A DNA stretch of 458 nucleotides. Source: Escherichia coli. Its GTDB lineage: Bacteria; Pseudomonadota; Gammaproteobacteria; Enterobacterales; Enterobacteriaceae. Shown one piece after another: positions 1 to 458 of this stretch. The position numbers and the translations under genes were made by a program. Position 1 is the first letter of the stretch. Every line of letters starts with the position of its first letter. The DNA lies in assembly GCF_003334255.1 (NCBI RefSeq), contig NZ_QOWU01000237.1. The stretch is one strand, 5' to 3'. The notes below the pieces were generated by a model. It was given only the letters and a program-made list of their open reading frames with translations, had not been told where the DNA came from and searched no databases.

Positions 1-16
1 AATTTGAGAGACTCAC

Positions 17-34
17 GAACAACTTTCGTTGTTC
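17..34 (-). other. Perfect 7-bp hairpin with GNRA (GAAA) tetraloop in the 23S 5' flank
   Basis: Seen in sequence: 17-23 gaacaac and 28-34 gttgttc are perfect inverted repeats around tttc. In transcript sense this is GAACAAC-GAAA-GUUGUUC. It is not followed by a U-tract, so it is not an intrinsic terminator. Inference: a structural element of the pre-23S leader near the region that pairs with the 23S 3' flank for RNase III processing. Confidence 0.5.
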
Positions 35-62
35 AGTGTTTCAATTTTCAGCTTGATCCAGA

Positions 63-75
63 TTTTTAAAGAGCA
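63..75 (-). promoter_or_regulatory. Spacer boxA antitermination element (Nus-factor binding motif)
   Basis: Seen in sequence: reverse complement of 63-75 is TGCTCTTTAAAAA, one mismatch from the rrn leader boxA consensus TGCTCTTTAACAA. It lies immediately downstream (in transcript sense) of a boxB-like hairpin. Established knowledge: rrn operons carry a second boxB-boxA pair in the 16S-23S spacer that supports processive antitermination through 23S. Confidence 0.7.
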
Positions 76-76
76 A

Positions 77-114
77 ATATCTCAAACATCACCCGAAGAT
101 GAGTTTTGAGATAT
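77..114 (-). promoter_or_regulatory. boxB-like RNA hairpin preceding spacer boxA
   Basis: Seen in sequence: 77-86 (atatctcaaa) is perfectly complementary to 105-114 (tttgagatat). In transcript sense the inner part is CAUC-UUCG-GGUG, giving a C(UUCG)G tetraloop with a short bulge. Its position 2 nt upstream of boxA in the transcript matches the boxB-boxA arrangement. Confidence 0.6.
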
Positions 115-148
115 TAAGGCAGGTGACTTTCACTCACAAACCAGCAAG

Positions 149-224
149 TGGCGTCCCCTAGGGGATTCGAACCCCTGTTACCGCCGTGAAAGGGCGGTGT
201 CCTGGGCCTCTAGACGAAGGGGAC
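149..224 (-). tRNA. gltT/gltU/gltV/gltW: tRNA-Glu, anticodon UUC, 76 nt, CCA encoded
   Basis: Seen in sequence: reverse complement of 149-224 is GTCCCCTTCGTCTAGAGGCCCAGGACACCGCCCTTTCACGGCGGTAACAGGGGTTCGAATCCCCTAGGGGACGCCA. It folds as a cloverleaf by hand: acceptor stem GUCCCCU/AGGGGAC, anticodon stem CCGCC/GGCGG with loop CUUUCAC (anticodon UUC = plus-strand gaa at 188-190), T-arm with GGTTCGAATCC, discriminator G, terminal CCA (plus-strand tgg at 149-151). Established knowledge: matches the E. coli tRNA-Glu carried in rrnB/C/E/G spacers. The specific copy cannot be determined from the window; if the source is E. coli K-12 in reference orientation, a minus-strand Glu-type operon would be rrnG (gltW), but that is inference only. 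Confidence 0.95.
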
Positions 225-263
225 ACGAAAATTGCTTATCACGCGTTGCGTGATATTTTCGTG
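224..263 (-). other. Extended imperfect hairpin abutting the tRNA-Glu 5' end
   Basis: Seen in sequence: outer stem 224-231 (cacgaaaa) pairs with 256-263 (ttttcgtg); inner stem 237-244 (tatcacgc) pairs with 248-255 (gcgtgata); 3-nt loop gtt at 245-247; asymmetric internal loop at 232-236. Position 224 is also nucleotide +1 of the tRNA, so the 3' strand of the hairpin in transcript sense runs directly into the tRNA. Confidence 0.5.
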
Positions 264-395
264 TAGGGTGAGCTTTCATTAATAGAAAGCGAACGGCCTT
301 ATTCTCTTCAGCCTCACTCCCAACGCGTAAACGCCTTGCTTTTCACTTTCTATCAGACAATCTGTGTGAGCACTGCAAAGAACGCTTCTTTAAGG
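225..395 (-). other. Internal transcribed spacer, proximal part (between 16S 3' end and tRNA-Glu)
   Basis: Seen in sequence: lies between the 16S 3' terminus and the tRNA on the same strand. From memory it matches the E. coli Glu-type spacer (transcript sense begins CCTTAAAGAAGCGTTCTTTGCAGTGCTCACACAGATTGTCTGATAGAAAGTGAAAAGCAAGGCG...). Boundaries follow from the two flanking RNA genes. Confidence 0.85.
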
Positions 396-458
396 TAAGG
401 AGGTGATCCAACCGCAGGTTCCCCTACGGTTACCTTGTTACGACTTCACCCCAGTCAT
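396..458 (-). rRNA. rrs: 16S ribosomal RNA, 3'-terminal 63 nt (partial; gene continues beyond the window end)
   Basis: Seen in sequence: plus strand 396-458 is taaggaggtgatccaaccgcaggttcccctacggttaccttgttacgacttcaccccagtcat. Its reverse complement ends ...GTAACAAGGTAACCGTAGGGGAACCTGCGGTTGGATCACCTCCTTA, the conserved 16S 3' terminus. It contains the anti-Shine-Dalgarno CCUCC (plus-strand ggagg at 399-403). Established knowledge: this terminus is nearly invariant in Enterobacteriaceae. Mature 3' end placed at 396. Confidence 0.95.

Follow-up and report, generated by a model that had tools for sequence, protein, structure and literature searches.

The described systems closest to the locus analyzed here are the rRNA operons of Escherichia coli K-12 MG1655 that carry a Glu-type spacer between 16S and 23S. 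Of these four operons, rrnG alone is on the minus strand; rrnB, rrnC, and rrnE are plus-strand. They occur in two forms. The gap between 16S and the tRNA is 171 nt in rrnB and rrnG (the long form) and 85 nt in rrnC and rrnE (the short form). The spacer tRNA is excised by RNase P and 3' processing enzymes, the stems on which RNase III acts in 16S and 23S processing are built from the ends of the spacer, and boxA, a NusB/NusE binding site, re-loads the Nus antitermination complex ahead of 23S. These processing and antitermination roles are established knowledge of the E. coli rrn operons, and the analysis below concerns the motifs alone. Spacer exchange, or concerted evolution, between rrn operons was reportedly described by Harvey and Hill in 1990. 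Among the rrn operons of E. coli, rates of conversion are a matter of measurement (PMC8022953), and in Treponema it is the spacer sequence, not the genomic position, that tracks strain classification (PMC3755535). It should be noted that the rrn spacer classes, the long insert, boxA, and inter-operon gene conversion are all long established, and nothing reported here constitutes new biology. Operon assignments in the literature are not always reliable; the text of PMC4696680 gives rrnD as Glu-type and rrnE as Ile/Ala-type, and the MG1655 record instead annotates gltV (tRNA-Glu) in rrnE.

The stretch of DNA analyzed here (hereafter the window) is 458 nt long and is, with high confidence, a long-form, Glu-type internal transcribed spacer from an rRNA operon of E. 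coli (or Shigella), read on the reverse strand. Identity to E. coli rrn operons is 100% over the 458 bases, which is far beyond chance. The RNA-sense strand of the window is the minus strand, and the order on the RNA is the 16S 3' end, a 171-nt spacer, tRNA-Glu(UUC), a hairpin with boxA, and the 23S leader; the whole region would be transcribed within the long pre-rRNA. The last 63 nt of 16S rRNA occupy positions 396-458 (minus strand; Rfam RF00177, E 5e-17, covering model positions 1471-1533 out of 1533 at 61 bits, where the gathering score is 50), and these positions are annotated as 16S rRNA in all matching records. A direct reading of the sequence places the 16S 3' terminal GGAUCACCUCCUUA at 396-409 (minus strand) and the anti-Shine-Dalgarno CCUCC at the reverse complement of 399-403.

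The tRNA-Glu(UUC) gene, of 76 nt, lies at 149-224 on the minus strand as called by ARAGORN, with an Rfam RF00005 match at 152-224 (60.1 bits against a gathering score of 29), and its 3' CCA is encoded in the gene at 149-151. Between this gene and the Rfam 16S boundary is the 171-nt spacer of the long form (225-395, minus strand), such that the interval 149-395 is exactly the tRNA-Glu gene plus the 16S-to-tRNA spacer. The remaining positions, 1-148 (minus strand), are the first 148 nt of the tRNA-Glu-to-23S spacer. Its last 45 nt before 23S lie beyond the window, as judged from an identical genomic copy, in which the same-strand 23S gene ends 45 nt beyond window position 1. The window therefore covers 395 of 440 spacer bases and leaves no room for a tRNA-Ile or a tRNA-Ala. 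In agreement with this, ARAGORN found no second tRNA on either strand of the window. The preliminary description had placed the spacer in the Glu-type class on the presence of tRNA-Glu and the absence of tRNA-Ile and tRNA-Ala, and ARAGORN and Rfam bear this out, with a single tRNA-Glu(UUC) between 16S and 23S on the rRNA strand. The assignment to the long form follows the 171-nt gap with its 86-nt extra block, as in K-12 rrnB and rrnG.

Other features were considered for the window and set aside. Weak Rfam matches (SNORD24, mascRNA, ceN33, a Tymo tRNA-like element, and a plastid element) all fell under their gathering scores and were treated as chance or tRNA look-alikes. Coding potential was rejected, as the window holds only three ORFs, of 26-33 aa, and the window has no promoter-like site that could act as an internal promoter. 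An internal terminator was likewise rejected; a single terminator-like palindrome is present, on the antisense strand only, against 0.6 expected. This hairpin with its T-run, at 237-255 on the plus strand and antisense to the rRNA, is the same palindrome as the tRNA-adjacent hairpin on the sense strand.

Downstream of the tRNA on the RNA, the 1-148 segment folds better than 200 of 200 shuffles (z-score -3.8). An inverted repeat at 76-115 (minus strand) forms a predicted 40-nt hairpin of -15.8 kcal/mol (z-score -5.3) just upstream of boxA, in a boxB-like position. The putative spacer boxA antitermination motif, TGCTCTTTAAAAA, is at 63-75 (minus strand) and matches TGCTCTTTAAMAA exactly, which none of 200 shuffles did. 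It conforms to the consensus TGCTCTTTAA(C/A)AA, is RNA-sense, lies between the tRNA and 23S, and has the hairpin before it, all of which is as expected for a spacer boxA judged on its sequence. The segment at 1-71 (minus strand) matches the StyR-44 family, here the 23S leader (Rfam RF01830, model positions 1-71 of 107). Its score of 81.5 bits passes the gathering score of 54 with a match that is incomplete, the rest of the model being cut off by the end of the window. StyR-44 is found upstream of 23S in all seven operons and may be a mere metastable intermediate of pre-rRNA processing (PMC2943607).

The feature that separates long from short spacers is a block at 228-329 (minus strand), which was delimited by alignment with short-form spacers and comprises 86 extra bases with diverged edges. 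Of the MG1655 spacers, those of rrnB and rrnG align with the block, and those of rrnC and rrnE lack it. At its end, abutting the 5' end of the tRNA, a strong hairpin is predicted at 225-262 (minus strand; -12.3 kcal/mol, z-score -3.2). The block is probably what older papers call the 'spacer loop', a name that is attributed to Harvey et al. 1988 in a passage of PMC4696680.

To place the window among the K-12 operons, it was aligned with the four Glu-type spacers of MG1655, and no exact match to any of them was found. The tRNA-Glu is identical to all four MG1655 copies (gltT, gltU, gltV, and gltW) and is for this reason uninformative on the operon copy. The closest K-12 copy is rrnB (rrsB-gltT-rrlB), with which the window shares 452 of 458 bases, including the 171-nt gap, the long insert, and the hairpin with boxA; it differs from rrnB by six substitutions, at 381, 375, 124, 121, 120, and 25, and rrnB is on the plus strand in MG1655. 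The rrnG operon (rrsG-gltW-rrlG) is likewise Glu-type and long form, and is on the minus strand as is the window, but it differs at 20 positions, 12 of which lie in the upper stem and loop (89-102) of the hairpin that precedes boxA. In the rrnG version the whole upper stem and loop is replaced and the same fold is kept. Written out, the upper stem and tetraloop are CAGACU-GUUA-AGUCUUG in the window against CUCAUC-UUCG-GGUGAUG in MG1655 rrnG, which is an entirely different sequence. Since both versions share one architecture, the replacement of the stem is compensatory. The short spacers of rrnC and rrnE (gltU and gltV) are furthest from the window, with about 95 differing alignment columns that are mostly indel, because they are without the 86-nt block and have a gap of 85 nt instead of 171 nt. 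Outside the block, by contrast, the 1-148 segment and the 16S-proximal segment are identical to these short spacers at the variable sites, except at position 349 in rrnC. Among the K-12-derived records sampled, the best match was 98.7%, at the rrnB position (H52). Judged by its sequence, then, the window is not K-12.

The distribution of these differences suggests how the allele is built. At all six positions at which the window departs from K-12 rrnB, it has the rrnC/rrnE base, and the whole tRNA-to-23S spacer (1-148) agrees with rrnC/rrnE at every variable site. The allele thus reads as a mosaic, in which an rrnB-type long insert sits within rrnC/rrnE-type flanks. RecA-dependent gene conversion between rrn operons would yield such a mosaic, and it would also place the same allele at different rrn positions across strains and sometimes at two positions in one strain. 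We infer conversion as the source of the distribution described below from the way in which the allele is spread across assemblies. The locus resembles the earlier accounts of rrn concerted evolution (PMC8022953, PMC3755535) in that one allele is found at differing positions and is a mosaic of sister-operon states. It is unlike the Treponema case (PMC3755535) in mechanism, which was attributed there to reciprocal translocation and not to conversion, and which here is read from assemblies.

To determine where the allele resides, 5,426 complete E. coli genomes were searched, a collection that does not take in Shigella records. All 458 bases were matched exactly in only 13 of these genomes, each of which was assigned to a locus by its flanking genes. 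Seven are at rrnB, between btuB-murI and murB-birA (FORC 064, H3, 33-6, 58-3, HL15, SF10, and G6/7). Two are at rrnE, with purH and yjaA-yjaB-metA as flanks (G1/2 and G8), two are at rrnC, with yieP and aspT-trpT-hdfR (HSP425 and AF58), and two are at rrnG, with clpB and kgtP (160-11H1 and E423). With one mismatch, PKF8 and DLI.5a have the window at rrnB, and a Res13 strain has it at rrnG. The search gives the best place per record only, and two of the exact-match genomes were examined for ties, so that further within-genome ties are possible in the other 11. Within FORC 064 only rrnB has the window sequence (0 differences); rrnG is 20 differences away, and rrnC and rrnE are of the short form. 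In G1/2 the exact sequence is present at rrnB and also at rrnE. The rrnE operon of G6/7 is the same as the window apart from one extra homopolymer C inside the tRNA. Exact matches to 180-nt and 80-nt segments of the spacer were not found in a set with one genome per species (100,044 species).

The G1/2, G6/7, and G8 assemblies have 16S genes of 1520-1544 nt, 23S genes of 2860-2907 nt, and a 77-nt tRNA-Glu with an extra homopolymer C. These odd rRNA and tRNA lengths suggest residual indel errors. The tie between rrnB and rrnE in G1/2 could be partly an artefact, because 5-kb rrn repeats can be homogenised or mis-assigned by assembly or polishing and because the lengths in the G strains are odd.

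The operon copy is not readable from the 458 bases, because the identical sequence stands at all four Glu-type positions in different strains; exchange between operons has the same consequence. The window ends inside the operon, and unique DNA is reached no sooner than 1.9 kb beyond it on the 16S side and 3.3 kb beyond it on the 23S side. The preliminary description had left the copy open and called for flanking context, and the presence of the exact allele at rrnB, rrnE, rrnC, and rrnG supports it on this point. It had also expected the slight differences between copies to reveal which one is at hand. This works within FORC 064, in which no operon but rrnB has the window sequence, but it breaks down within G1/2, where rrnB and rrnE are the same, and across strains. 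With probabilities drawn from 13 records, several of them clonal pairs, the single likeliest locus is rrnB (btuB-murI / murB-birA) in a non-K-12 strain, at somewhat better than an even chance, and the remainder is split among rrnE, rrnC, and rrnG.

The rival assignments differ in how much of this evidence they can accommodate. The reading put forward in the preliminary description was that a minus-strand Glu-type operon, if the source were K-12 in reference orientation, would be rrnG (gltW). The logic is sound, in that rrnG is the sole minus-strand Glu-type operon in MG1655 and has the same 171-nt gap as the window; it is the K-12 premise that fails, with 6 differences from rrnB and 20 from rrnG, the latter including the replaced hairpin top at 89-102. 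As no MG1655 operon is identical and the K-12-derived records reach 98.7% at best, and that at the rrnB position, the probability that the window is K-12 rrnG is practically nil. The two outcomes that had been named as refuting this suggestion, a best match to another operon and one to a genome with a different operon orientation, were both observed. By alignment the window is closer to rrnB, and the exact matches are mostly at rrnB (7 of 13), and in FORC 064 and PKF8 rrnB is on the minus strand. A second way to arrive at rrnG is through an operon at that position (clpB/kgtP) in a non-K-12 strain, the spacer of which had been converted to the window allele. Two of the 13 exact matches (160-11H1 and E423) and the one-mismatch Res13 strain are indeed at clpB/kgtP, and where the long insert is present in a single copy it is at rrnG in both genomes sampled. 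However, the operons of 160-11H1, E423, and Res13 are on the plus strand, opposite to the window, 7 of 13 exact matches are at rrnB, and the ordinary rrnG-type allele is 19-20 positions off in MG1655, FORC 064, YSP8-1, and E2865. We consider a converted rrnG unlikely.

A somewhat larger share of the probability, still well short of even, goes to an operon at the rrnE or rrnC position, in which the long-insert allele would have spread to a locus that usually has a short spacer. At every variable site the window sequence on either side of the insert is of the rrnC/rrnE type. G1/2 and G8 have their exact matches at rrnE in the orientation of the window, and HSP425 and AF58 have theirs at rrnC. 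Against this, such cases make up 4 of the 13 records. A single study, with indel errors in its assemblies, supplied the rrnE cases, and G1/2 at least also has the allele at rrnB, while the rrnC cases (HSP425 and AF58) are oriented opposite to the window. A source other than E. coli in the strict sense, such as Shigella or an Escherichia species beyond the collection searched, is very improbable. The rarity of the exact allele (13 of 5,426 genomes) would fit such a source, but E. coli itself has 458/458 matches, and among the 100,044 species representatives scanned for the 180-nt and 80-nt segments there was no other carrier. The assignment to rrnB in a non-K-12 strain is thus the one we favor.

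The strand of the window contributes less than it might appear. The orientation given is that of 8 of the 13 exact-match records, 6 at rrnB and 2 at rrnE, and in both exact rrnG cases (160-11H1 and E423) the operon is on the plus strand of the record. Where a deposited genome record starts and which strand it shows are arbitrary; FORC 064, for example, has the opposite orientation to MG1655, so that rrnG is plus-strand and the other three Glu-type operons (rrnB, rrnC, and rrnE) are minus-strand. Because many records are flipped in relation to MG1655, the minus strand is uninformative unless the orientation of the record is known. Inference of the locus from record position together with strand was considered and ruled out by PKF8, in which rrnB mimics K-12 rrnG. 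The PKF8 record (NZ_CP156813.1) is 4.58 Mb long and has a minus-strand rrnB at 2.58 Mb (2.576-2.581 Mb), near the position of rrnG in MG1655. The caution that results is that spacer sequence plus strand do not identify an E. coli rrn operon copy. Where the 16S-23S spacer is used for operon assignment, strain typing, or assembly checks, reads or contigs must reach the unique flanking genes.

As a side observation on gene context, the 1.19-1.28 Mb region of FORC 064 has an integrase-bearing island that adjoins ssrA, and a P2-like prophage is located between smpB/ssrA and the rrnG region. Because of the island and the prophage, rrnG is displaced by tens of kb from its K-12 position.

The long insert itself is far more widespread than the exact window allele. 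As window positions 228-322 it was found 4,008 times, in 2,791 of the 5,426 E. coli genomes (51%), the number of places per genome having a median of 1 and reaching 7 at most, and in both of the single-copy genomes sampled (n = 2) it is held at rrnG. A listing spread over the matches, with each row standing for about 92 records, suggests approximate counts: a long allele like that of the window, at ≥98.3% identity, in ∼1,900 genomes, only a long allele of ∼96% identity (the rrnG-type distance) in ∼850-900, and short spacers only in the rest. The long insert in the Glu spacer is a presence/absence polymorphism across E. coli. One further reading is that occasional whole-spacer conversion carries the insert to rrnB, rrnC, and rrnE, and to as many as 7 places in one genome, with a biased or selected spread that would make it a functional or self-propagating element. 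We regard this as very improbable. If it were true, for example because the tRNA-adjacent hairpin altered the processing of pre-rRNA or tRNA-Glu, the insert would not be neutral variation.

Lastly, a few matches fell outside the usual chromosomal pattern. Ten places matching the window are on plasmid records, the Nissle 1917 record CP007799 has 21 places and bears the note 'rRNA prediction is too short', and strain IH5 has a single 77-base match beside an Ail/Lom gene. The matches in the plasmid records, CP007799, and IH5 are probably assembly or annotation oddities.
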